Shown here: positions 1,565 through 32,919 of the stretch, piece by piece | How the letters are laid out: every line of letters begins with the position of its first letter | Position numbering within the stretch: the first letter of the stretch is position 1 | Assembly: GCF_004010195.1 (NCBI RefSeq) | Contig: NC_057719.1 | Coordinates: 6,420,561-6,453,479, forward strand | Origin: Chiloscyllium plagiosum | Lineage: Eukaryota | DNA length: 32,919 bases | Direction: 5' to 3' | Made by a program: the position numbers and the translations under genes | Notes under the pieces: model-generated | Told to the model about the DNA's origin: nothing | The model's input: the letters and a program-made list of their open reading frames with translations, nothing else | The model's database searches: none

Positions 1565-1655
1565 ATAAATGCTGAAAATCTAAAGGAAAAACAAAAACTG
1601 CTGGAAATATTCAGCAGGTCTGAGGCGCCTGTAGAGAGAGGAACAGAATGAATGT
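1565..1655 (-). mobile_element. Degenerate PLE family-3 terminal fragment
   Basis: TGCTGGAAATATTCAGCAGGTCTG...TGTAGAGAGAGGAACAGA resembles 3500-3582. Confidence 0.5.
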
Positions 1656-2135
1656 GAGGAATCTGCTGGCCTCTGCCCTGGTAAAACAGGTGAGTGGCGG
1701 GTTTCATGGCCACCTGGACTGTAGGGTGGCAATGCTCTCTTTAAACCTATGCCAGGGAAACCCAAGGCAATTGAGGCCCTTAAGTGGGTAATTGTGGCCT
1801 AACCACTTGGCCGAATCGTTGGGAAATAGACTAATGTGAATCAGCAGACACCATTTTTAAAGTTCCTCGTGGACTGTTGGGTTGTCTAGTTGCCCACTTC
1901 ATGTGTTCCCATCTTCTTAAAGGCTCTCTAATTATTCCAGGAGGCTTATCACATCTGAATGATATGGTTGACTTTTGACTGGCCTTTGAGGTGGTCAAAT
2001 GTGCATATTGTCAACGGTTTAAGATAAGATCCACCTGTGGGAGGGCAGTAGATGCCAGGGGTTACCAGGGACACCAATAAGAAGTATAATAAAAAAGTCA
2101 CCAGTTTTTATCTGAGCCAGGCCAATGATGACATG

Positions 2136-2262
2136 TAGGAGAAAGTGAGGACTGCAGATGCTGGAGATCAGAGCTGAAAATGTGTTTCTGGAAAAGCGCA
2201 GCAGGTCAGGCAGCATCCAAGGAGCAGGAGAATCGATGTTTTGGGCATGAGCTCTTCTTCCT
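2136..2262 (-). mobile_element. PLE family-1 terminal-repeat fragment with decayed hammerhead motif
   Basis: Matches the terminus attached to the GIY-YIG remnant at 12963-13468; minus strand reads GAAGAAGAGCTCATGCCCAAAACATCG. Confidence 0.85.
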
Positions 2263-2367
2263 GAAGGATTCCATGTAGAAGATAAAGTCTCAGCGACCAT
2301 CAAACTATTGTTGCTTATTGCGAAAGCACATCTTTTCGTTTCAGGGGAAAAAATATGTGCCAATCTC
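2263..2367. repeat. 105-bp direct repeat, copy 2
   Basis: See 607-711. Confidence 0.95.
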
Positions 2368-3499: not shown

Positions 3500-3582
3500 T
3501 GGATGCCGGAAATCCGAAACAGAACGTGCTGGAGAAACTCAGCAAGTCTGGCAGCATCTGCGGTAAGAGAAACAGAGTTAAC
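3500..3582 (-). mobile_element. PLE family-3 terminal fragment
   Basis: Reverse complement of 7680-7768 (GCTGGAGAAACTCAGCAAGTCTGGCAGCATCTG...AACAGAGTTAAC). Confidence 0.7.
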
Positions 3583-3725: not shown

Positions 3726-3932
3726 TGAAGTAGCGAATAAATGCATATCAGTCTATCAACCTGTACAGAATACTAGCTGCTATCAGTTCCTTATTGTATG
3801 ACACAAATGATTTGAAAACAGTCTGATTTGAAATTGCCAATGACGTGCGACACCCCGAAAATAATTTCCACAGATGTGATGGCCCAGGAGTTTCTAATCA
3901 GCATCAGCAACAACAAATTCAAACACAGATGT

Positions 3933-4240
3933 TTAGATTACTTACAGTGTGGAAACAGGCCCTTCGGCCCAACAAGTCCACACCGACCCGCCAATGCGCA
4001 ACCCGCCCAGACCCATTCCCCTACATTTACCCCTGCCCCTAACACTACGGGCAATTTAGCGTGCCCAATTCACCTGACCTGCACATCTTTGGACTGTGGG
4101 AGGAAACCAGAGCACCCGGAGGAAACCCACGCAGACACGGGGAGAACGTGCAAACTCCACACAGTCAGTCGCCTGAGGCGGGAATTGAACCCAGGTCTCT
4201 AGCGCTGTGAGGCAGCAGTGCTGACCACTGTGCCACCGTG
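3933..4240 (-). mobile_element. HE1-type SINE, near full length, CpG-rich (young)
   Basis: Complete head, central motif and tail on the minus strand. Confidence 0.9.
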
Positions 4241-4423
4241 TTCTGCTGTCAACTTTCCTGGACAGGAGCCTCTTGTTACAAAGGTGTGGAGCTGAGGCCA
4301 GGGATCCTGGCAGACAGCAGGAGAGTACGTCAGTGTGGAAACTGCACCTCCTTTTCAGCAGCAAGTGGCACTTTGAGCTAATCTTCTGAGTTGAAGATCG
4401 ATAGAACGAGGGGCTGTGATAGT

Positions 4424-4560
4424 TTGGCTCAGCGGTTAGCACTGCTGCATCACAGCACGAGGGACCCAAGGTCAATTCCAGCCTTGTGTGACTGTCTGTG
4501 TGGCCATTGCATGTTCTCCCTGTGTCTGTGTGGGTTTCCTCTGGATGCTCTGGTTCCCTA
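4424..4560 (+). mobile_element. HE1-type SINE, 5' part
   Basis: TGGCTCAGCGGTTAGCACTGCTGC...TGCATGTTCTCCCTGTGTCTG. Confidence 0.8.
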
Positions 4561-6546: not shown

Positions 6547-6721
6547 GGCAGAAGTGGGTACTGCAGATGCTGGAAATCAGAGTCTAGATTAGAGTGGTGC
6601 TGGAAAAGCACAGCAGGTCAGGCAGCATCCGAGGAGCAGGAAAATCGACGTTTCGGGCAAAAGCCCTCCATCAGGAATGAAAGCAGGGAGCCTCCTGGGT
6701 GGAGAGATAAATGGCTCTAAT
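6547..6721 (-). mobile_element. PLE family-1 terminal insertion with 15-bp TSD
   Basis: Flanked by CTACTGAAGA(T/C)CTGA at 6532-6546 and 6722-6736; hammerhead core mutated to CTGATGG. Confidence 0.9.
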
Positions 6722-7647: not shown

Positions 7648-7768
7648 GGTTCCCAAAAAGAGTCATTGCAGACTCTAACGTTAACTCTGTTTCTCTCTCC
7701 ACAGACGCTGCCAGACCTGCTGAGTTTCTCCAGCAATCTGTGTGTTTGGTTCGGATTTCCAGCATCCA
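7648..7768 (+). mobile_element. PLE family-3 terminal fragment with decayed hammerhead-like region
   Basis: AAGAGTC-ATTGCA-GACTC hairpin, then TAACGTTAACTCTG...GACGCTGCCAGACCTGCTGAGTTTCTCCAGCA...CCAGCATCC. Confidence 0.65.
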
Positions 7769-7819
7769 CTTCATTGACAGACTGAATGGCCTCCATTTGA
7801 TTCTATGCCTTACAGTCTT

Positions 7820-9515
7820 ACAGAAACAGGAAGCAGGAAACTCTAGGCCAGTTAGCTTAACATCTGTCACGGGAGAATTAGTGTATTTTGTTATTAAGGA
7901 GGTAATTGCAGGATATTTAGGAAAGTGTAATATGACCAGATAGGGTCAAATTGGTTTTGTGATGGTGAAAATGCATGTCAATAATTTGTTAAAGATATGA
8001 AAAAGGAGGGAGGCAAAAGGGGTGACAATAGGCTGATTAGCCTAATTTCTATTGTTGGAAAAATGGTGGAGTCAAGCACTAGAGAAGTAATAATGAAGCA
8101 TTTGGAAAATCATCATCTAATCAAGCAGGATTGGCACAGTTTCATGAAAAGGAAATTGTGTCTGACTAATTTATAACAGTTTTTTTGAGGAAGTCTCAAT
8201 CAGAGTGGATAGAAGGGAACCAGTAGATGGGCTGCATTTGGACTACCAGAAGATGTCCAGCAAGGTATCTTGCCAATGACTAAGTCATAAGGTAAGAGGC
8301 CACTGTGTTGGAGGTAGTATACTGGCATGGATAGGGGATTGGCTAATGGGTAGGAAACAGCGCGTGGGGAGAAGGGACACTGTTTCAGTTAGTGACCTGT
8401 GAACAGGGGGGAGTCCACAGGGATCCGGGCTGGGACTGCAGCTGTTTACAATGTATATTAGTGACTTGGAGGAAGGAAGTGAATGTACTGCATCCACGTT
8501 TGCAGACAGCACCAAAATAGGTGCAAGGGCAGGTCACAAGAGCGGTATAAGCAGTTTACGGAGAGATACTGATAGGTTAAAGTAATTGGGCAAAAGATTG
8601 GCCAATGGAGTATAAAGTGGGAACATGTGAAATTGTTCAGTTTGGAAGGGAGAACAAAAGGTCAGAGTATTATTTAAATGGAGAAAAACTGCAGAAAGGT
8701 GCAACGCTAAGGGACTGGGGGAACTTGTGCATGAAACACAGAAAGCTAACACACAGGGGCAGCAGGTAATCATTGACAGACTGAATGGCCTACCTCTGAT
8801 TCTCCACCTTATGGTCTTACAGAAGTAGAATTCCTGATGAAGGACTTATGCCCGAAACATCCATTCTCCTGCTCCTCGGATGCTGCCTGACCTGCTGTGC
8901 TTTTCCAGCACCGCATTCCAGACAGCAGGATATTAGGAAGGGAAATGGAATGTTGGCCTTTATTTCAAGGGAGTTGGAGTATAAGAGTAGGGAAGTTTTA
9001 CTGCAGTTCTACAAGGTGCTGGTGTACTGTGAGCAGTTTTGGTTTCCTTATTTAAGGATAGGTACAATTTCATTGGAGGCACATCACAGAAGGTTCAGTC
9101 GGTACGGAAGGATTGCCTTACAAGCAGATTAAACAGGCTGAGGTTTACTCACTGGTGATCTCATTGAAATGTACAGGATTCTCAAGGGGTTTGAGGGGGT
9201 AAATGCTGAAAGGATATTCCCCCTCATGGGAGAGTCTAGGACCAGGGGCATAGTCTCAGAATAAAGGGGCACAATTTCAGACTGAGATGAGGAGGAATTT
9301 CTTCTCTCAGAGGGTTGGGAATCTTTGGAACGTCTTGCCACAGAGAGACCTGTGGGGGCAGAGTCCCTGTGTATATTTAAGGCCATTGAGGTTGGGTCAT
9401 TAAGTATATTCAAGGCTGATGTCAGGAAGGGAATTGGGGGGGCGGGGGGGTGGGTGAGGGGAGGCAGGAAAGTGGAACTGAGGACTATCAGATCAAGCAG
9501 GATCTCATTGAATGG
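7820..9515 (+). mobile_element. Decayed CR1-type LINE ORF2 (RT region to 3' end), composite
   Basis: RPVSLTSV, GVHRDPG(GVPQGS-like), FADSTK, GMLAFISRELEYKSREVLLQ and RRNFFSQRVGNLWN motifs, with stops and frameshifts. Confidence 0.85.
8829..8920 (+). mobile_element. PLE family-1 terminal fragment inserted in a CR1 LINE
   Basis: CTGATGAAGGACTTATGCCCGAAACATC...GATGCTGCCTGACCTGCTGTGCTTTTCCAGCA. Confidence 0.85.
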
Positions 9516-9837
9516 TCTCACCAAAACTATACAAAGCACTAGACAGACTACTGCTGGAAAACTGTTACTGGAAAAGGGTTTTTGGCCTCTTATCTCAGAA
9601 AAGATACAGAATTAGAATTAGCTTTATTGTCACATGTACTGGTTTTGGAGGTAATCCAGGCATAGAGGGACTGTCTTATGAGGAGAAGTCGAGTAGATTG
9701 GGCCTGCATTTGCAGCAATTATGACCCGCTCCCGTTAATAGCTCACAATGATATTAATATTTTCTGATCAACCTGTGGGATTTGAACCCAGGACTATCAC
9801 TACCACTGCACCACAACAGTCCCCTCAGAATGAAAAT

Positions 9838-9950
9838 ATGTGTGGTGCTGGAAAAGCACAGTTGGTCAGACAGCATCTGAGGAGCAGGAGAGTCGACTCC
9901 CCTGCTTTTTGACTCTGATCTCCAGCATCTGCAGTCCTCACTTTCTCCTC
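9838..9950. mobile_element. PLE family-1 rearranged (inverted) terminal fragment
   Basis: Minus-oriented arm turns at GCAGGAGAGTCGACTCCCCTGC into the plus-oriented end CTCCAGCATCTGCAGTCCTCACTTTCTCCT. Confidence 0.8.
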
Positions 9951-10725: not shown

Positions 10726-10928
10726 GTTTGCACATTCTCCCCATGTCTGCGTGGGTTTCCTCCGGGTCCTCCCAAAGATGTGCAGGTTGGGTGGATTGGC
10801 CGTTTTAAATTGACCCTTAGAGTCCAGCTGGATTAGCCATGGGAAATGCAGGGTTACAGGGGTGGGATACTCTTTAGAGAGTTGGTGTGGACTCGATGGG
10901 CTGAAAGGCCTGCTTCCATACTGTAGGG
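10726..10928 (+). mobile_element. HE1-type SINE, 5'-truncated
   Basis: TTTGCACATTCTCCCCATGTCTGCGTGGGTTTCCTCCGGG...GGCCTGCTTCCATACTGTAG. Confidence 0.85.
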
Positions 10929-10959
10929 GCGCTGTGAAATTGGCATCCCCCTCTCACCT

Positions 10960-11619: not shown

Positions 11620-12120
11620 CAGCAAAATGTGAATGATATCCAGGCTAGGACTGACAAGTGCAAGTACACACAATACCACAGGCAATAGCCTTCTCCAATA
11701 AGGGACAATCTAACCACCACCCCTTGACATTCAATGGCGTCACCATCACTGAATCCACACTATCAACATCCTGGGGGCTACCACCAGAACCTTATACTGG
11801 ATTCACCACATGAACATAGTGGCTACAAGAGCAGGTCAGAGACTAGGAATCCTGCAGTGAGTAACTCCCCAACTCACTATCTACAAGGCACAAGTCAGGA
11901 GTGTGATGGAATACTCCCCACTTGTCTAGATGGGGACAGCTCCAACAACACTCAAGAAGCTTGACACCATCCACTTGACTGGCAACACATCCACAAGCAT
12001 CCACTCCCATCACCACCACCGCAGTAGTGTGTACTGTTGACAAAATGCACTGCAGAAATTCACCAAAAATCCTCAGATAACATCTTCCATATCCATGACC
12101 GTGACCGTGTCCATATAGAA
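11620..12120 (+). mobile_element. LINE family-2 ORF2 C-terminal fragment
   Basis: TIYKAQVRSVMEYSPL and VCTVDKMHCRNSP-type motifs. Confidence 0.8.
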
Positions 12121-12667
12121 GGTCACACTACAGGTGACCCCACTACACTATACATTCTCACACTCACACACATACACACCACACTCTTACATACTCACAT
12201 TCTCATGCAGATCCTCTCTCTTACAGACACACGCACATACACCCCCCGAGAGGCACACACATGCAAATACACTCTCTCTCACACTCACACACACACTCGC
12301 ATGCACGCACAGACACACACACAGACACACACATTCATAAATCTATGGGGTGAATTTTCATTTGCAGAATTGTAATTGTAGATACATTCTATTTTGTTCG
12401 AAAAACACAATCTGCAGGCAGACAATCCATGTAACATTTTATAAATTCCCACTTTGGAAATAGAACCAATCTGACTCAAGATTTGGATACAGACAGACTC
12501 TAACCTTACACCTTTACTGCATTGTCAGGCTGAGATGTCACTTCCTTCACAAAATCTTATCTTGAGAATCTGACTTGAAAGAAGTTCTGGGGTTTACATA
12601 TTAATGAACCGAAAGCTGCAACCCGTTCTAAAAGATGAAAGACTTAACATCAATCTAGGTTTGTTCA
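12121..12667 (+). mobile_element. PLE family-2 3' region (ORF end, CA-rich tract, AT-rich UTR)
   Basis: GTCACACTACAGGTGA, CA-rich tract and TTCTAAAAGATGA.AGACTTAAC match 25968-26545. Confidence 0.85.
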
Positions 12668-12750
12668 CGTTTTGGGCATAAGCCCTCACATTCCTGCTCC
12701 TCGGATGCTGCCTGACCGGCTGTGCTTTTCCAGCACCACTCTGATCTAGA
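12668..12750. mobile_element. PLE family-1 short inverted terminal fragment
   Basis: CGTTTTGGGCATAAGCCCT (minus) joined to CCTGCTCCTCGGATGCTGCC...CCAGCACCACTCT (plus). Confidence 0.8.
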
Positions 12751-12962
12751 ATATTGAGAGTCAAGTTCAGGCCTCATCAATGATAAGCCCCAGTAAGTTG
12801 ACAGAGAAGGATTCATTGATGGTAATACCACTGAATGTCAAGGGCAGTTATTAGATTGTCTCTACTTGGCGGTGGTGATTGCCTGGCATTTGTGCCATGT
12901 TAATGTTACTTGCCATTTTTCAGCCCACAGCTGGATATTGTCCAGATCTTGCTGCATTTGAA

Positions 12963-13468
12963 TCCACTGCACATCCACTAATATCATTTATAATATCATT
13001 TATTGTATCCGTTGCTCCCGATGCGGTCTCCTCTACATTGGGGAGACTGGGCACCTCCTAGCAGAGCGCTTTAGGGAACATCTCCGAGACACCCGCACCA
13101 ATCAACCAAACCGCCAACATTTCAACTCCCCCTCCCACTCTGCCGAGGATATGGAGGTCCTGGGCCTCCTTCACCGCCCGACCTGCCCAGCTCCTTTTCC
13201 ACCTATCCACTCCACCCTCTCCTCCCTGACCTATCACGTTCATCTCCTTCCCCACTGACCTATTGTACTCTATGCCACTCTCTCCCCACCCCCACCCTCC
13301 TCTAGCTTATCTCTCCATGCTTCAGGCTCTCTGCCTTTATTCCTGATGAAGGGCTTTTGCCCGAAACGTCGATTTTGCCTGTCCTCGGATGCTGCCTGAA
13401 TTGCTGTGCTCTTCCAGCACCACTAATCCAGAATCTGGTTTCCAGCATCTGCAGTCATTGTTTTTACC
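12963..13468 (+). mobile_element. PLE family 1: GIY-YIG endonuclease remnant plus terminal repeat, 9-bp TSD
   Basis: NIIYCIRCSRCGLLYIG(fs)ETGHLLAERFREHL...HFNSPSHS; TSD GCATTTGAA at 12954-12962 and 13469-13477. Confidence 0.92.
13340..13374 (+). ncRNA. Minimal type-I hammerhead ribozyme motif, core intact
   Basis: CTGATGA-A-GGGC-TTTT-GCCC-GAAAC-GTC; short helix I (TC/GA). Confidence 0.8.
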
Positions 13469-13699
13469 GCATTTGAACATGGACTGCTTCACTATCTGAG
13501 GTGTCATGAATGGTGCTGAACATTGTACAATAATCAGCAAACATCCCCACCTCTGACCTTATGATGGAGGGAAGATCATTGATGAAGCAGCTGAAGCTGG
13601 TTGGGCCTAGGACACTACCCTGAGGATCTCCTGTAGCGATGTCCTGGAGCTGAGATAACTGACCTCCAACAACCACAATCATCTTCCTATGTGTCAGAT

Positions 13700-14033
13700 A
13701 AGGTATTGGATGGGTGTATGAGTAGGAAGGGTGTAGAGAGATATGGGCCAAATGCTGGCAAATAGGATTAGATTAGTTTAGGATACCTGGTTAGTATGGA
13801 TGAGTTGGACTGAAAGTCTTTTTCTGTGCTGTACATCTCTATAACTCTATGACTCTAAGTGATGGATGTGCGTACAATTACAACATCTAAAAGACATTTT
13901 GGATAAGTACATGAAGAGGAAAGGTTTGGAGGGATATGGGTGAGAGCAGGCAGGTGGGACTGGTTTAATTTGGGATTATGTTCAGCATGGACTGGTTGGA
14001 CCAAATGCTCTTTTTCTGTGCTGTATGACTCTA
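13700..14033 (+). mobile_element. Two consecutive CR1-type 3' tails
   Basis: Two 3' UTR copies ending in ACTCTATGACTCTA (~13857) and ATGACTCTAAGACTC (~14038). Confidence 0.8.
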
Positions 14034-16624: not shown

Positions 16625-16850
16625 TCGAAGAGGGTGGTGCTGGAAAAGCACAGCAGGTCAGGCAGCACCTGAGGAGCAGGAGAATCAACGTTTCAGGCAT
16701 AAGCCCTTCATCAGGAATTCTTGCTGATGAAGGGCTTATGTTCGTAATGTGGACTCTCCTGCTCCTCGGATGCTGCCTGACCTGCTGTGCTTTTCCAGCA
16801 CCACCCTCTTCGACTCCAATCTCCAGCATCTGCAGTGCTCACCTTCTCCT
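16625..16850. mobile_element. Fold-back PLE family-1 mini-element
   Basis: 90-bp inverted arms 16625-16714 and 16724-16813, followed by the element 3' end. Confidence 0.9.
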
Positions 16851-17294
16851 GGGGAAATAATAAGGGAATTATTAGGAAACGGTAGAGGCTTTGAATGAAT
16901 ACTTTGCATCAGTCTTTACAGTATGTTATCCTAATAACATCCCAATAATACTAAAGCTGGGGGAGGGGAAGAGGGGTGGGAATATACACAATAACAGTCA
17001 CAAGAGGAGACGTACTAGAGAAACTGATGAGTCTAAAGGCCGATAGGTTCTGTGGACCTAAAGGGTTCCATCTCAGGTTTTAAAGGAAACAGCTGCAGAG
17101 GTAGTAGATGCACTGCTAGTAATTTGCAGGAATCCTTAGAATCTTGGAAAATCCAAAAGTATTGGAAAACTGTCAATATGTAAACCTTACTCAAAAAGGG
17201 AGCTTTTTTTAAAAAAAGGTGACTATAGTCCATTTAGCTTGCCATTTTAATCAGGAAAATGCTAGAGTCTATTATAATCAATGTTATAAAGGAT

Positions 17295-17630
17295 AACTTC
17301 ACCAAAGATCCTCAGACAGCACCTTCCAAACCCACGACCACTTCCAACTAGAAGGACAAGGGCAGCAGGTACAAGGGAACACCACCACCTTCAATTTCCC
17401 TTCCAAGCCACTCACCATCCTGACTTGGAAATATATTGCCATTCCTTCACTGTCACTGGATCAAAATCCCGGAATTCTGTACCTAAGGGCATTGTGGATC
17501 AACCTACAGAAAATGGGCTGCAGCTGTTCAAAAAGGCAGCTCACCATCACCTTCTCAAAAGGCAACTAGGGACGGGCAATAAATGCTGGGCCAGCCAGCA
17601 AAGCCTACATCCCACAAATGAATTTTTAAA
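17295..17630 (+). mobile_element. LINE family-2 3' end
   Basis: SPKILRQHLPNPRPLPTRRTRAA and 3' UTR ending ATGAATTTTTAAA. Confidence 0.85.
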
Positions 17631-17783
17631 GAGAGCATTTAGAAATATGTTATATAATTAAGCAGAGTCGGCAAGGTTTCATGAAATGGAAACCATGCCT
17701 GACAAACTTCTTCAAGAAGGTGTCAAAACAGGTGGATGAAGGTAAGGAAGTTGATGCGGTGTATGGAGACTAGTAAGGCATTT

Positions 17784-18111
17784 GATTAGATTCCCTACAG
17801 TGTGGAAACAGACCCTTTGGCCCAACAAGTCCACACCAACCCTCCGAAGAGTAACCCACCCAGACCCATTCTCCTACCCTATATTTACCCCTGTCAAAGC
17901 ACCTAACACAATGGGCAATTTAGCATGGCCAATTCACCCTAACCTGCACATCTTTAGATTGTGGGAGGAAACCGGAGCACCCGGAGGAAACCCACACTGA
18001 CACGGGGAGAATGTGCAAACTCCACACAGACAGTCACCCGAGGTGGGAATCATACCTGGGTCCCTGGCACTATGAGGCAGCAGTGCTAACCACTGAGCCA
18101 TCGTGTCGCCC
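17784..18111 (-). mobile_element. HE1-type SINE (in duplication copy 1)
   Basis: Full head, central motif and tail. Confidence 0.9.
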
Positions 18112-18651
18112 ATAACATTTAATAAGGTTCCACACAGTAGGCTATTGCACAAACTAAGGAGTTTCGGGATTGAAGGTGATTTAACGGTTTGGATCAGAAA
18201 TTGGCTAGCTGAAAGAAAACAGAGGGTGGTGGTTGATGGGAAATGTTCATCCTGGAGCTCAGTTACCAGTGGTGTGCCGCAAGGATCTGTTTTGGGGACC
18301 ATATTGCCATTCCTTCACTGTCACTGGATCAAAATCCCGGAATTCTGTACCTAAGGGCATTGTGGATCAACCTACAGAAAATGGGCTGCAGCAGTTCAAA
18401 AAGGCAGCTCACCATCACCTTCTCAAAAGGCAACTAGGGACGGGCAATAAATGCTGGGCCAGCCAGCAAAGCCCACATCCCACAAATGAATTTTTAAAGA
18501 GAGCATTTAGAAATATGTTATATAATTAAGCAGAGTCGGCAAGGTTTCATGAAATGGAAACCATGCCTGACAAACTTCTTCAAGAAGGTGTCAAAACAGG
18601 TGGATGAAGGTAAGGAAGTTGATGCGGTGTATGGAGACTAGTAAAGCATTT

Positions 18652-18979
18652 TATTAGGTTCCCTACAGTGTGGAAACAGACCCTTTGGCCCAACAAGTCC
18701 ACACCAACCCTCCGAAGAGTAACCCACCCAGACCCATTCTCCTACCCTATATTTACCCCTGCCAAAGCACCTAATACAATGGGCAATTTAGCACGGCCAA
18801 TTCACCCTAACCTGCACGTCTTTAGATTGTGGGAGGAAACCGGAGCACCCGGAGGAAACCCACACAGACACGGGGAGAATGTGCAAACTCCACACAGACA
18901 GTCAGCCGAGGTGGGAATCATACCTGGGTCCCTGGCGGTGTGAGGCAGAAGTGCTAACCACTGAGCCATCGTGTCGCCC
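18652..18979 (-). mobile_element. HE1-type SINE (in duplication copy 2)
   Basis: Duplicate of 17784-18111. Confidence 0.9.
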
Positions 18980-20130
18980 ATAACATTTAATAAGGTTCCA
19001 CATAGTAGACTATTGCACAAACTAAGGAGTTTCGGGATTGAAGGTGATTTAACGGTTTGGATCAGAAATTGGCTAGCTGAAAGAAAACAGAGGGTGGTGG
19101 TTGATGGGAAATGTTAATCCTGGAGCTCAGTTACCAGTGGTGTGCCACAAGGATCTGTTTTGGGGACCACTGTTGTTTGTCAATTTTATAAATGATCTGG
19201 AGGTGGGTGTAGAAGGATGGGTTAGTAAATTTGCAGAGAGACTAAGATAGGCAGAGATGTGGATAGTGTCGAAGGATGTCGTGGGTTACAAAGGGACATT
19301 GATAAGATGCAGAGCTGGGCTGAGAAGTGGCAAATGGAATTTAATGTGGAAAAGTGTGAGGTAGTTCACTTTGGAAGAAGTAACAGGAATGCAGAGTATT
19401 GGGCTAATGGTAAAATTCTTGGCAATGTAGATGAACAGAGAAATCTTGGTGTCCAGGTGCATAAATCCCTGAAAGTTGCCACCCAGGTTGATAGGGCTAT
19501 TAAGAAGGCATATGGTGTGTTGGCATTTATTGGTATGGGGATTGAGTTTCGGAGCCACGTGGGCATGCTTCAGCTGTACAGGACACTGGTAAGGCCGCAC
19601 CTGGAGTATTGTGTACAGTTCTGGTCACCGCATTATAGGAAGGATGTGTAAGCTTTGGAAAGGGTTCAAATGAGATTTACTGAGGTGTGGTCTGGTATGG
19701 AAGGAAGGTCTTACAAGGAAAGGCTGAGGGAACTGAGGCTGTTTTCGTTGGAGAGTAGAGGGTTGAGAGGTGACTTAATCAAGGCGTATAAGATAATCAG
19801 AGGGTTATATAGGGTGGACAGTGAGAACTCTTTTCCTCGGATGGTGAAGGCTAACATGAGGGGACATAGCTTTAAATTGAGAGGTGATAGATTTAGGACA
19901 GATATTGGGGTAGTTTCGTTACTCAGAGAGTAGTAGTGGTGTGGAACGGCCTGCCTGCAACAGTAGTAGACACACCAATGTTAAAGGCAGTTAAATGGGC
20001 ATTGACATACATATGGATAATAATGGAACCGTGTAGGTTAGAGGGGAATCAGATTCATTTCACAGGTCGGTGCAACATTGAGTGCCGAAAGGCCTGTACT
20101 GTGCTGTAACATTCTATGTTCTATGTTCTA
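18980..20130 (+). mobile_element. Relatively young CR1-type LINE RT and 3' end, disabled
   Basis: SGVPQGSVLGPLLFVNFINDL, WAEKWQMEFNVEKCEVVHFG, LVRPHLEYCVQFWSPHYRKDV then a premature TAA (19649-19651); tail (TTCTATG)n. Confidence 0.92.
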
Positions 20131-20671: not shown

Positions 20672-21230
20672 ATCCACACTCTACCATCCTAGTCAGCAAT
20701 GAATTCTAACTCGTTACTGATCACTTTATAAACAAATTCTTCCTCACTTCCAACCCTGAATCATTTTCCAAACCCTTAAATTTATGTCTTTAGTCCGTGT
20801 TCCATTGGATAATGAGAGCAGTGAATCTTTGTCTAGATTACCCAATCCTGTCATAATTGGGGAACAATCCCAGATTCTCCACCCTAACCTGGGCGGAAGT
20901 GGGTACTGCAGATGCTGGAGATTCGAGTCAAGATTAGAGTGGTGCTGGAAAAGCACAGCAGGTCAGGCAGCCTCCGAGGAGCAGGAAAATCGACGTTTCA
21001 GGCAAAAGCCCTTCATCAGGAAAGGCTCGGATGCTGCCTGATCTGCTGTGCTTTTCCAGTACGACTCTAATCTTGACTCTGTACCTAACATTACCCACTC
21101 GCCTATTGAACCGCTCCGATAAATCTGCTCCACATTCTTGTATCCTTCTTAAAGTTTGGGGACAAGAACTGGGCACAGTACTCTAGTTGTGGCCTAATCA
21201 GAACTTTAGACAGGTTCAGCTTAACTGCTC
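20672..21230 (-). mobile_element. Old CR1-type LINE 3' fragment
   Basis: Minus strand NLDKDSLLSLSNGTRTKDINLRV; interrupted by a PLE insertion. Confidence 0.55.
20892..21081. mobile_element. Fold-back PLE family-1 mini-element with intact minus-strand hammerhead core
   Basis: Minus strand CTGATGAAGGGCTTTTGCCTGAAACGTC (~20992-21019); inverted arm 21026-21080. Confidence 0.9.
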
Positions 21231-21231
21231 T

Positions 21232-21544
21232 GGGCAGCACAGTGGCTCAGTGGTTAGCACTGCTGCCTCACAGCACCAGGGTCCCAGGTCTGATAACAGC
21301 CTCGGGCGACTGTCTGTGTGGAGTTTGCACATTCTCCCCGTGTCTGCGTGGGTTTCCTCCGGGTGCTCTGGTTTCCTCCCTCAGTTCAAAGATGTGCAGG
21401 TCAGGTGAATTGGCCATGCTAAATTGCACATAGTACTAGATCCATTAGTCAGAGGGGAAATGGGTCTGGGTGGGTTACTCTTCGGTGGGTCGTTGTGGAC
21501 TTGTTGGGACGAAGGGCCTGTTTCCACACTGTAGGGAATCTAAA
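21232..21544 (+). mobile_element. HE1-type SINE, full length
   Basis: Head, central motif and tail GGGCCTGTTTCCACACTGTAGGGAATCTAA. Confidence 0.92.
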
Positions 21545-22031: not shown

Positions 22032-22244
22032 GTAGATTAGAGTGGTGCTGGAAAAGCACAGCAGGTCAGGCAGCATCCGAGGAACAGGGAAATCAACGTT
22101 TCGGGCAAAAACCCTTCATCAATAAGGACGTTTGCCCGAAACGTCGATTTTCCTGCTTCTTGGATGCTGCCTGACCTGCTGTGTTTTTCCAGCACCACTC
22201 TAATCTAGACTCTGATCTCAAGCATCTGCAGTCCTCACTTTTGC
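22032..22244. mobile_element. Fold-back PLE family-1 mini-element with 14-bp TSD
   Basis: CTTCCTAAACTAGT at 22018-22031 and 22245-22258; inverted arms ~22033-22108 and ~22132-22208. Confidence 0.93.
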
Positions 22245-22714
22245 CTTCCTAAACTAGTCTGTCTAGTCTAAATCACAGGGACCTAATCCCAACCATCTGT
22301 TCTTTAGCTGCTTGAATGGATAGAAAAGGAATTGGAACATTTCAGTTTAAATAAGATTAATTATATGCAATCAACATGGAAACAGGTTGCAGTCATGATC
22401 ACAGTGTTCTGTATACCATCCAGTTCCTTCCTACCAGACCTAGATGCCTTCCTGTTTACCAACAGCGAGACAAGTCTTGTAGTTCATTTCCTGAGCATTG
22501 CTGACAGCTTGCTGGCTCTCACTATCGATTTCGAGCAGGGAGGGGATTTGAGAGAGGTGATTAAAATGGCAAAGGGTTTTGATAGGGGAGGACTGGGTGA
22601 GTTAGGGAGATCCTCCTCACAGGCCGGTTCCTGGGCTTGGTCAAAGTGGCCTTGAACAGATCCTGGCAGTGATCATAGCGCCTGACTATCTGCCCCACAT
22701 GCCCAGTTATGTCT

Positions 22715-24204: not shown

Positions 24205-24522
24205 AGTACTTCCTGTTCTGCTATAACATGGTCTTCCTGTTCTCATGCAAACCCGTGTTATAAGAAAATTGCCTAAAAGCAGCACCATTTAATCTAACGG
24301 GGCCAGAATCATATTATAACCAATTCACGCTTTAAAACTTCATGATTTAGAAACAACGTCCCCAATTGTTTAATCGTGTCATAGCAAATGTATCAAAAAG
24401 TGTGGTGCTGGAAAAGCACAGCCGGTCAGGCAGCATCTGAGGAGCAGGAGAGTGATGTTTCAAGCATAAGCTCTTCATCAGATATTTATGTTAATAAAAC
24501 ACTCATTATGCAGAACGACCTG
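24205..24522. mobile_element. Possible non-autonomous DNA transposon (MITE-like), interrupted by a PLE fragment
   Basis: Imperfect inverted ends GTTCTGCTATAA (24215-24226) and TTATGCAGAAC (24506-24516); internal TTATAA repeats. Confidence 0.4.
24393..24481 (-). mobile_element. PLE family-1 terminal fragment
   Basis: GTGGTGCTGGAAAAGCACAG...AAGCTCTTCATCAG. Confidence 0.85.
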
Positions 24523-25596: not shown

Positions 25597-26747
25597 CTTG
25601 TCAACATGAATACCACCATTATACATGGGGACACCTCTCACTATGAACGGGGCAGGTACTCATGTGACTCAGCCAACGTTGTCTATCTCATACGCTGCAG
25701 GGGCAAGGATGCCCTGAGGTATGGTACATTGGTGAAACCGAGCTCAGGCTATGGTAACTGATGACACCGCACAACAATCAACAGACAAGAGAGTTCCCTC
25801 CCACTCGGAGAACACTTCAGTGGTCCGGGACATTCGACCTCGGACCTTTGGGTGACAGTCCTCCAAAGCAGACTTCGGGACAGGCAACAACGCAGAGTGG
25901 CCAAGCAGAAGCTGATAGTCAAGTTCGGTACCCATGGGGATGGCCTCAACTGGGACCTTGGGTTCATGTCACACTACAGGTGATCCCACTGCACTGTACA
26001 CACACACACACAGACACAGACACACACAAACACAAACACTGACACACACATGCACACAGACACACACACACTCACACAGACCCTCTCTCATAGACAAGCT
26101 CTCTCTCATACGCTCACACATACACTCCCACATTCACATGCACACACACATACCCTCTCACAGACTCATAGCCCTTTACACTCACACTCACACACATACA
26201 CACACTCTCTCACAAACATTCATACCCCCTCGCACACACACCCACATGCACACACACACATCTAAGTTTGTGGGGTGATTTTGTACTTGCAGAATTACTT
26301 TTTACTTTGCTCACAAACTGCATGAATCCATGTAAGATTCTTTAATTCCCTTTTTTAGATTAGAATCCATCTCACACAGGGCAACTCACACCTTCAATGC
26401 CTTATCTGGGCCGACAAGGCACCTATTGTTAAAGTTCACTTGAGAATGTAACTTTTAGAAAAGTCCTGGGATTTATATATGAAAGAACTGAAACCAACAT
26501 GGTCATTCTAAAAGATGAGAGACTTAACAAACAATCCAGATCTTTTTAAATATATAATTTCAGTTAGATCACACTGTAAACTTTCGCTATAAATTCTGTG
26601 TCCTATGATCTTATGCTCCAAACCCACCTGATGAAGGAGCGGCGCTCCGAAAGCTAGTGCTTCCAAATAAACCTGTTGGACTATAACCTGGTGTTGTGTG
26701 ATTTTTAACTTTGTCCACCCCAGTCCAACACTGGCACCTCCACATCA
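25597..26747 (+). mobile_element. PLE family 2: GIY-YIG remnant, CA-rich 3' region, hammerhead terminus, 11-bp TSD
   Basis: YSCDSANVVYLIRC(fs)...WYIGETE...GEHFSGPGHS...GLNWD; TSD TGGAAATATAT at 25586-25596 and 26748-26758. Confidence 0.92.
26625..26659 (+). ncRNA. Minimal hammerhead ribozyme motif (family 2), core intact
   Basis: CAC-CTGATGA-A-GGAGC-GGC-GCTCC-GAAA-GCTA-GTG; helix I CAC/GTG. Confidence 0.8.
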
Positions 26748-27903: not shown

Positions 27904-28195
27904 GGCGGCACAGTGGCTCAGTTGTTAGCACTGCTGCGTCACAGCACCAGGGTCCCAGGTTTGATTCCAGCCTCGGGCGACTATCTGTATGGAGTTTGCA
28001 CATTCTCCCCGTGTCTGCGTGGGCTTCCTCCCACAACCCAAAGATGTGCAGGTTAGGTGAATTGGCCATGATAAATTGCCCACAATGTTAGGTGCATTAG
28101 TCAGAGGGAAATGGGTCTGGGTGGGTTACTCTTCGGAGGGTTGGTGAGGTCTGGTTGGGCTGAAGGGCCTGTTTCCACACTGTACGTAATCTAAA
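27904..28195 (+). mobile_element. HE1-type SINE
   Basis: Head, central motif and tail. Confidence 0.9.
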
Positions 28196-28337
28196 AAAAT
28201 TCTAAGGAATTGTCCTGAGTACATTCTACAAACTGATTTACACAGATGCACTAGAGGAAATGGTCACTGGACGAGCAAGTCATAAATCCCAGTTAATGTT
28301 CTGTGCATTCAAATCCTACTGTGTGAATCTCGTTAAT

Positions 28338-28671
28338 TAGGTTAGATTAGAATCCCTATAGTATAGAAACAGGCCCTTTGGCCCAACAAGTCCATACCGA
28401 CCCTGTGAAGAGTAACCCATCCAGATCCATTTACCAACCCTATATTTATCCCTGACTAATGCACCTAACATTACAGGCAATTTAGCATGGCCAATTCACC
28501 TGACCTGCACATCTTTGGATTATGGGAGGAAACCGCAGTACCTGGAGAAACCCACTCAGACACAGGGAGAACGTGCAAACTCAATGCAGACAGTCACCCA
28601 AGGCTGGAATCGAACCTGGGACCCTGGCACTGTGAGGCAGCAGTGCTAACCACTAAACCACCGTGCCACCC
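28338..28671 (-). mobile_element. HE1-type SINE
   Basis: Full-length copy on the minus strand. Confidence 0.9.
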
Positions 28672-30955: not shown

Positions 30956-31520
30956 ATGATCTATTAGGTATTCCAGAAGGCCTATGACAAGGTGCTGCAC
31001 AGTAGGCTGCTAAAAAAGATAACAGCCCATGTTGTTACTGCCATGGAGAGAGAATTGGCTGACTGGCAGAAGGCATAGAGTGGGGATAAAGGGGTCTCTT
31101 TCAGGATGGCAGCTGGTGACTAGTGGAATTCCACAGGGGTCAGTGCTGGGATCACAAAAATTCATATTATACGTTAATGGTCTGGACGAAGGAACTGAGG
31201 GCACTGTTGCTATGTTTGCAGATGACACAAGATTAGGTGGAGGGACAGAGAGGGTTGAGGAAGAGGGGAGGCTGCAAAAGGATTTGGACAGGTGAGGAGA
31301 ATGGGCGAAGAATTGGCACATGGAACAGAATGTAGAAAAGTATGAGGTTTGCACTTTGTAGGAAGATTAGAGGCATGGACTATTTCCTAAATAGGGAAAG
31401 GCTTCCGAAATCTGAAGCACAATGGGACTTAGGGACCTTAGTTCAGTATTTTCTTAAGGTTAACATGCAGGTTCAGTTGGCAGTTAGGAAGGTAATGCAA
31501 TGTTAGCATCATTTCAAGAG

Positions 31521-31704
31521 GTGAAAAATGTGTTGCTAGAAAAGCGCAGCAGCTCAGGCAGCATCCAAGGAGCAGGAGAATCGACATTTCGGGCATAAGC
31601 CCTTCTTCTCCTGCTCTTTGGATGCTGCCTGACCTACTGTGCTTTTCCACCAACACATTTTTCAGCTCTGATCTCCAGCATCTGCAGTCCTCACTTTCTC
31701 CTAG
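31521..31704. mobile_element. Fold-back PLE family-1 mini-element with 11-bp TSD
   Basis: ATCATTTCAAG at 31508-31518 and 31705-31715; inverted arms. Confidence 0.9.
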
Positions 31705-31772: not shown

Positions 31773-31859
31773 CTGAAAATGTGTTGCTGGAAAAGTGCAG
31801 CAGGTCAGGCAGCATCCAAGGAACAGGAGAATCGACGTTTCGGGCATAAGCCCTTCTTC
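31773..31859 (-). mobile_element. 87-bp PLE family-1 insertion with 13-bp TSD and intact hammerhead core
   Basis: AGGCTCTCGTGAG at 31760-31772 and 31860-31872; minus strand CTGAAGAAGGGCTTATGCCCGAAACGTC. Confidence 0.92.
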
Positions 31860-32164
31860 AGGCTCTCGTGAGACTGCATTGGGAATATTGTGAGTAGTTT
31901 TAGGGCCTGTATTGAAGGAAGGATGTGCTGGCATTGAAGGGGGTCCAGGGGAGGTTCACAAGAATGATGCTGGGGATGAAGGGCTTGACACACTCGACTT
32001 GTTATGGAGGGCTTGATCCATTCCATCGGTTATGGATTGACATCCTGAAATAACCCCTTATCCCAACTCTCTGTCTTCTGTTAGCCAGTCCATCTTATTG
32101 GCTTCACTCATATCTTGGACAAAGGGAATCTGCCATCTTGTCTGTTCCCATCAGTAACTCAAGA

Positions 32165-32505: not shown

Positions 32506-32733
32506 TCCCACAAGACCGACAGCAAAGTGGATGAACTGAGCTGTTCGTTTTGTGTCTGCCTCCTCTAGTTATAATCCTTGCATGCCATGTGGTTATTGCT
32601 GCATTTCTTATCCAATCCCCGTGACCACCAAGACAGAATGACGTTTGCCCAGTTCTAAGGGTGGTTCAGTGTTGACCATATTGATGTCGATGAGCAAGCT
32701 GCCTTGTTGTTTACTTGTTTAATATCCTTATCC

Positions 32734-32919
32734 AGAGCTGAAAATGTGTTGTTGGAAAAGCGCAGCAGGTCAGGCAGCATCCAAGGAACAGGAGAATCGA
32801 CGTTTCGGGCATAAGCCCTTCTTCAGGAATGAGGAAAGTGTGTCCAGCAGGCTAAGATAAAAGGTAGGGAGGAGGGACTTGGGGGAAGGGCGTTGGAATT
32901 GCGATAGGTGGAGGGAGGT
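32734..32919 (-). mobile_element. PLE family-1 terminus running off the window end
   Basis: Terminal repeat plus purine-rich UTR; intact minus-strand hammerhead core. Confidence 0.88.
32795..32830 (-). ncRNA. Minimal hammerhead ribozyme motif, core intact
   Basis: Minus strand ATTC-CTGAAGA-A-GGGC-TTAT-GCCC-GAAAC-GTC-GATT. Confidence 0.8.

Follow-up and report, generated by a model that had tools for sequence, protein, structure and literature searches.

Metazoan Penelope-like elements (PLEs) carry small hammerhead ribozymes in their pLTRs, and the corresponding min-HHR class was defined by Cervera and De la Pena in 2014 (PMC4209133). As reported there, most copies in the survey were single motifs of truncated PLEs, monomers did not cleave in the assays and dimers showed low cleavage; the dimer requirement of PLE hammerheads is also summarised in a 2019 review. 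In the anole element PAc, cutting by the hammerhead requires the element's protein, the template is mainly uncut RNA, the tail is defined by two priming sites, and no ends at the cut site are seen in the RNA-seq presented in that work (Frangieh et al. 2024, PMC11167929). A CX2-5CxxC linker marks the Neptune and Nematis clades (Craig et al. 2021, PMC8557442), and the same paper describes the role of PLE hammerheads as still unsettled in the field. Finally, non-LTR retrozymes consist of pLTR-derived tandem units and were found in one chondrichthyan genome (10.64898/2026.07.22.740005).

We analyzed a window of 32,919 nucleotides from the shark Chiloscyllium plagiosum (NC_057719.1, positions 6,420,561 to 6,453,479), in which a short repeat carries a hammerhead motif. 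The motif belongs to the kind already described in 2014, and the shark family is an addition to it. It has in common with the min-HHR class (PMC4209133) the CUGANGA core, an extra base between 9 and 10.1, the G10.1-C11.1 pair, the lack of loop III, a palindromic 15.2-16.2 and the NUH site; the copies, too, are mostly single motifs of truncated elements and include opposite-strand pairs, and near-identical layouts are presented there for an Acropora Neptune element and for Nematostella. In contrast to the descriptor of that class, which has a helix I of 3-7 bp, the shark family has 2 bp, a pyrimidine mismatch and 1 bp, although published examples reach 2 bp. The alignment shown in that survey contains no cartilaginous fish, and the local density in the shark, if typical, would far exceed the counts it gives (about 4,000 in coelacanth and 9,000 in Xenopus).

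Like the Anolis Poseidon element PAc (PMC11167929), the shark family has two 3' ends about 35-40 nt apart downstream of the hammerhead and insertions derived from uncleaved RNA, but it looks Neptune-like. With the insertion units of endonuclease-bearing (EN+) PLEs of the Neptune clade, as they are described in PMC8557442, it shares the C-terminal GIY-YIG domain, strong 5' truncation, an adjacent inverted truncated copy and a one-sided tail; unlike those units, the window has neither a full-length nor a tandem copy. The non-coding, pLTR-derived units with type-I hammerheads resemble non-LTR retrozymes (10.64898/2026.07.22.740005), but retrozymes are head-to-tail tandem units, whereas the shark copies are dispersed or head-to-head. 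The retrozyme reading was rejected, as the window contains no tandem units. Our literature search on shark and elasmobranch Penelope hammerheads found no description of this family, which may be listed in the supplements of 10.64898/2026.07.22.740005.

Very probably, the repeats are 3'-terminal copies that were dead on arrival and derive from an endonuclease-bearing PLE, probably of Neptune type, whose hammerhead would cut only as a double hammerhead, with little or no cutting by the scattered copies. Each repeat has the minimal hammerhead located downstream of the GIY-YIG domain, in full or in part, and the explanation is supported by target-site duplications (TSDs), inverted 5' arms, a one-sided tail and helices that covary across families.

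The hammerhead motifs

A complete minimal hammerhead lies at 13339..13374 on the plus strand, where the core box, extra A, helix II, palindrome and GUC site can be read in the sequence. Positions 13343-13370 read CTGATGA-A-GGGC-TTTT-GCCC-GAAA-CGTC and are flanked by ATTC on the 5' side and GATT on the 3' side. The 5' strand of helix I (13339-13342) is followed by the core (13343-13349), the extra A (13350), helix II with 4 bp and a four-base loop (13351-13362), GAAA (13363-13366) and the palindromic half of helix III with the GUC site; the predicted cut is after 13370. The preliminary description had named this core and four on the minus strand (16714-16687, 21019-20992, 31861-31834 and 32826-32799) as intact. 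All five positions are correct, but intactness holds only in part: the 10.1-11.1 pair that closes helix II is G-U at 16714 and 21019, the 16714 core has a GUU site, and at 31861 helix I has been lost to 5' truncation down to 1 bp. Moreover, that list overlooked a sixth complete motif, which belongs to another family and lies at 26628-26656(+).

The CUGANGA and GAAANNUH boxes are exact at 13343, 16714, 21019, 24481, 31861, 32826 and 26628, and the extra A between 9 and 10.1 is present in all seven of these descriptor matches. The 10.1-11.1 pair is G-C at 13343, 31861, 32826 and 26628, and 24481 has a G-U pair like 16714 and 21019. The 15.2-16.2 palindrome, which allows a shared helix III, is CG in the main family and GC at 26628; CpG transitions have broken it in five aligned arms. 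Helix I in the main family consists of 2 bp, the pyrimidine mismatch and 1 bp, as compared with 3 bp at 26628.

The plain core pattern has 10 matches in the window versus 3.4 ± 1.9 expected, a number reached in 0 of 100 shuffles. When the exact core was combined with a helix II of at least 4 bp, there were 7 matches versus a mean of 0.03 (maximum 1) in 60 dinucleotide shuffles, and the further addition of the palindrome and a helix I of at least 2 bp left 5 matches, including 26628, versus none in all 60 shuffles. An Rfam hammerhead search had been proposed as a check; in our scan no hammerhead family was matched at E ≤ 1 across the window or at E ≤ 10 in 13280-13480. Both the 2014 descriptor and Rfam miss the motif because its helix I has only 2 bp plus a mismatch. 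Since standard tools miss the family in this way, with a short helix I and no Rfam match, hammerhead censuses of sharks would undercount it. The canonical type-I features, i.e. a 6-bp helix I with loop contacts, a helix III with a loop and an Rfam match, are absent here, and there is no loop III. Exact motif searches of metagenome and viral contigs gave no match.

The Penelope-like carrier and its insertions

The copy at 12963..13468 (+) is a 5'-truncated PLE insertion with an internal deletion, which lies inside a LINE-like fragment and is bordered by an exact 9-bp TSD (12954-12962 / 13469-13477). It contains a GIY-YIG endonuclease remnant at 12965..13174 (+) without the C-terminal part (Pfam PF01541, E 8e-6), which bears out the earlier assignment of a GIY-YIG remnant to this copy. 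Over 72 residues, the remnant shares 83% identity with the C-terminal part of an RT+EN protein of Chiloscyllium punctatum (P0002), its nearest protein relative, a match that fits a shark origin without settling the species. It has a 12-nt duplication and a 9-nt deletion (12980-13005), and a larger internal deletion at about 13180 takes away the C-terminus of the endonuclease. The RT domain is absent from this copy; through the P0002 relative, the GIY-YIG domain is seen to lie C-terminal to a PLE RT, as in EN+ PLEs. The P0002 linker that joins RT to EN reads, by eye, as CX4CxxC, and the copy is truncated before it. Judged from this linker motif of a relative, the carrier is probably a Neptune-type PLE, a linker of this kind being present in Nematis as well. 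LINE-type RT fragments were also found in the window (13467-13772, 18097-18351, 19229-19930 and 31023-31292), and at least the 13343 stump lies within one.

A second PLE family is represented at 25597..26747 (+), with an exact 11-bp duplication, a GIY-YIG remnant (25654-25932) and a (CA)n tract. Its hammerhead (26628-26656(+)) is complete, with a 5-bp helix II, an AGCU palindrome and a 3-bp helix I. The layout of GIY-YIG followed by hammerhead, together with the duplication, independently repeats that of the 13343 copy; at both 13343 and 26628 the motif is in sense orientation downstream of the GIY-YIG remnant. The 26628 family has a second 3' region at 12120-12658, again with a (CA)n tract, which is cut off before its hammerhead at the point where a main-family stump starts. 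A third, older family has a decayed hammerhead, read by eye, at 7648..7775 (+), with a 5-bp helix II at 7660-7675 and relatives at 3500-3582(-) and 1569-1666(-). Downstream of the hammerhead, the main family (16778-16799 and the equivalent positions of other copies) and the older one (7710-7733) retain a CTGAC or CTGAG together with a pyrimidine tract and CAG, an arrangement that we take to resemble a 3' splice site with its branch point.

The short repeat had been estimated to recur about 13 times in 33 kb, and indeed a blastn search from the 13343 end, together with reading of the raw sequence, gave 13 insertion loci of the main family, about 0.4 loci per kb. These loci comprise 20 arms because several of them are fold-backs. 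In addition to the 12963..13468 insertion, the copy with the complete hammerhead 32826-32799 occupies 32730..32919 (-) and extends past the window edge. The stump at 31773..31862 (-), of about 90 nt, has an intact core, no 5' strand of helix I and a 13-bp duplication. The stump at 24398..24481 (-) runs from C3 on with helix I and palindrome broken, and that at 8830..8915 (+) runs from 4 nt 5' of the core with mutations in helix I, helix II and palindrome. At 6547..6721 (-) the stump begins about 35 nt 5' of the core and carries A9→G and a 15-bp duplication with one mismatch, and at 2143..2271 (-) it has a 9-nt inverted 5' piece, mutations in G12 and the palindrome and an 11-bp duplication with one mismatch. 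The stump at 12660..12752 bears a short inverted hammerhead piece with G12 mutated, and its forward arm begins past the cut site.

The fold-back pair at 31519..31704 has an 11-bp duplication; its inverted arm starts at G5 and has a broken palindrome, and its forward arm starts just past the cut site and bears the tail. In the pair at 22032..22245, which has an exact 14-bp duplication, the core start is absent from both arms. The pair at 20891..21083 contains the intact, partly sequestered 21019-20992(-) core with its G-U closing pair, and the pair at 16625..16851 contains the 16714-16687(-) core with its GUU site, which is predicted to be fully paired with the decayed opposite arm. The fold-back at 9833..9950 is without a core and is centered on the cut-site palindrome: its center is exactly the predicted cut site (GUC|GAC), which fits either two arms both beginning at the cut or a fold-back at a 6-nt palindrome. 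At the fold-back junctions 2260-2271 and 21020-21030 we observed the same GAA microhomology (inverted helix I strand / core), and the arm at 21026 may begin within the core and carry an internal deletion.

Duplications of at least 9 bp were found at 6 of the 13 main loci, weak matches of 7-8 bp at three and none at three, and one locus runs past the window edge. Head-to-head pairs are present at 5 loci, and in all five the 35-40 nt tail is confined to one arm.

Conservation across relatives and decay of the inserted copies

A metagenome scan with an alignment of 2 of the 3 protein hits yielded 79 related loci, with 17 sense motifs versus one antisense motif, the latter in an inverted copy. In one relative (L001), the stretch 1005-1133 is an inverted copy of its hammerhead-bearing end, located about 0.9 kb upstream of the ORF segment that matched, an inverted arrangement usual in PLEs. 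No relative of the element protein was found in viral contigs. Of the relatives, 22 were eligible in that they cover the endonuclease end plus 300 nt or more past it, and 12 of these have the motif downstream of the endonuclease. We also used a descriptor-free comparison: when the 294-nt 3' region of the window was aligned locally to each of the 22 relatives, the best alignment lay on the motif in 18; in the other four, half the motif was matched in one and the match was elsewhere in three. In 15 of the 22 loci, at most 3 of 100 shuffles reached the score. The assignment of the motif as a minimal type-I hammerhead in a PLE terminus, which the preliminary description had made from the repeat and the adjacent remnant, is supported, both by the repeated layout in the second family and by the 12 of 22 relatives.

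An alignment of 19 rows was built from 16 of these 18 relatives, two duplicates being dropped, and 3 window copies. Pairs 1 and 2 of helix I are paired in all 19 rows with compensatory changes, a result reached by 1 and 0 of 2000 shuffles, respectively, and pair 3 of helix II forms in 18 of 19. Agreement in the core columns is 18-19 of 19 rows, compared with 7-13 of 19 in the flanks; the helix result is the stronger of the two, because the rows are related and the core served as the anchor. Since the motif is the best-matching part in 18 of 22 relatives and its helix I shows compensatory changes, we concluded that it is under selection in the source lineages.

The motif might be kept for a non-catalytic role, such as RNA dimerization, protein binding or an internal promoter, with no cleavage even in the source element. 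Pair 3 of helix I, which is paired in 16 of 19 rows, is U-U in both rows of the main window family, a pyrimidine-pyrimidine mismatch that would suit such a role, as would the mostly uncut templates and the insertion in vitro of the anole element without need of cleavage (PMC11167929). Nevertheless, all catalytic positions and the NUH site are retained, 2-bp helices I occur among the published PLE hammerheads, as in Culex and D. virilis (PMC4209133), and 5 of the 20 arms begin at +25 to +41, at or just past the cut site. We therefore regard a purely non-catalytic role as unlikely.

Excess conservation of the core had been proposed as a test of the hammerhead assignment. It is present across the families and absent among the window copies. 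In a decay count over 17 aligned arms, from which three short pieces were left out, there were 2 non-CpG core changes in 108 cells versus 2.5 expected from base-matched downstream rates, a comparison of low power; this weak test gave no sign of purifying selection in the inserted copies. Helix II had 8 changes versus 3.9 expected (P about 0.05), and the motif's three CpGs had changed in 13 of 80 cells versus 3 of 17 in the downstream CpG.

We predicted the folding of the copies with about 200 nt of flank, using models that leave out the tertiary contacts of the core, so that the results are suggestive only. Helix II was absent at 16714, 31861 and 22122, had P 0.6 at 21019 and reached about 0.95 at 13343 and 32826, whereas helix I had P 0.04 or less at all copies. 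Complete and foldable motifs occur at only 2 of the 13 loci, 13343 and 32826, which are 19.5 kb from each other and on opposite strands. On a single strand, the best cis partners are 32826 and 31861, at a distance of 965 nt, and their predicted shared helix III had P 0.0000. The plus strand has one complete main-family copy (13343), with which the palindrome of 26628 is incompatible; on the minus strand three of the four cores would, by prediction, be sequestered in part or in full, and one of these three is truncated as well. The earlier proposal was that any transcript crossing the locus on either strand carries several potential self-cleavage motifs; the presence of several working ones is not supported by these counts. 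The energy gap of the dimer was rejected as a marker of activity: since the relatives also favor the double hammerhead over two monomers, by 1.5-16.5 kcal/mol, the gap cannot separate active from inactive motifs.

Could the dispersed copies nevertheless act in host transcripts, with the ACGU palindrome mediating pairing in cis or in trans, and shape RNA turnover genome-wide? The complete 13343 and 32826 motifs with their well-folded helix II, the density of the loci, a possible use of 31861 as substrate half for 32826 on the same strand, and the strong cleavage in vitro of one of nine Xenopus tandem dimers (10.64898/2026.07.22.740005) would speak for this, and given very many transcribed copies, trans dimers could form. 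We nevertheless consider it highly improbable: complete, foldable motifs are limited to 2 of 13 loci, which lie on opposite strands; the best cis pair is predicted to form neither the shared helix III nor, at P 0.04 or less in context, helix I; the window copies lack excess core conservation; the 118 frames of at least 72 aa include no host exon; and in the anole RNA-seq (PMC11167929) RNA ends at the cut site are missing. The Pfam scan of these frames, in which short exons would be missed, gave no host domains, only four RT pieces and the GIY-YIG remnant. Most window copies are broken, misfolded or without the needed partner, and these predictions indicate that the scattered copies probably do not function as ribozymes. 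With a dimer needed and two complete, foldable loci on opposite strands, the very large ribozyme load suggested previously is, as a load of active motifs, not supported by the window.

The findings are consistent with a source element that would cut only as a double hammerhead in tandem element RNA, where two ACGU palindromes would form a shared 4-bp helix III, probably with the aid of the element protein. Reverse transcription would prime at two sites about 60-100 nt beyond the cut site, as papers on PLEs suggest, and would copy mostly uncleaved RNA. The scattered copies, having no partner and subject to CpG decay, would cut host RNA little or not at all.

5' ends of the copies

A family with many insertions allows the 5' ends of the templates to be mapped against the cut site from DNA alone. 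The offsets of the 20 arms from C3, judged by eye, were -380, beyond -93, -35, twelve values in -4 to +6, and then +25, +28, +30, +32 and +41. At 9 of the 11 scored loci, the two longest being left out, the 5'-most point lies within -4 to +6 (under a uniform null, a crude one, the binomial P is about 1e-9). Of the 13 loci, 12 keep sequence that lies upstream of the cut, and because of this pre-cut sequence these 12 loci derive from uncleaved RNA. Searches with only the tail turned up no additional loci with shorter copies. We rejected stalling at helix II as the source of the 5' cluster, as the clustered arms already traverse helix II.

This clustering would also be expected if the stumps were a non-autonomous element in its own right, SINE-like and about 130 nt long, that begins just before the hammerhead and is mobilized in trans. 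Such an element is quite improbable, however: the start cluster is common to all three subfamilies, long copies of two subfamilies (13343, 6674 and 32826) join the same end to upstream PLE sequence, the starts are spread over 11 nt, and the inverted arms vary by locus.

In the window copies, to which this comparison was confined, an RNA 5' end near -4 would explain the cluster. Within the 51 nt inspected, all three long copies show a single initiator-like match whose A lies at -4. The relatives do not share it, such a motif being present 5' of the core in 4 of 16 versus 23 of 208 background bins, so that it is not a general feature and is a lead for the shark family only. In D. virilis, Penelope starts 46 nt 5' of an intron (PMC2377424) that ends at helix I (PMC4209133); as this start precedes an intron ending there, a start at helix I differs from the known arrangement. 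For the five arms at +25 to +41, either cut templates or a fold-back at the palindrome may be the source.

Tentatively, and with some doubt, the stumps may be read as a record of the ends of the element RNA, a possibility to which the positions of the 5' ends point. The wall at -4 would mark the start of transcription, which would fall on the A of an initiator-like YYANWYY; that these letters also serve as helix I's 5' strand would account for the weakness of helix I. The stumps themselves would be run-off cDNAs, with priming in the message's upstream pLTR, and the minority of arms at +25 to +41 would be hammerhead-cut templates. Cleavage would take off just the capped first 32 nt and so act as a decapping switch between message and template. 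If this is true, the fraction cut in vivo could be read from insertion ends across the genome.

Two further features of the window were observed. A tandem duplication with a period of 868 nt at 17433-18990, with 99% identity over 300 nt, is either a recent duplication or an assembly artefact. An abundant SINE-like repeat, which presumably belongs to the shark HE1/V-SINE family, is present at 50-304, 3928-4560, 10726-10936, 17781-18110, 21233-21544 and 27904-28670.
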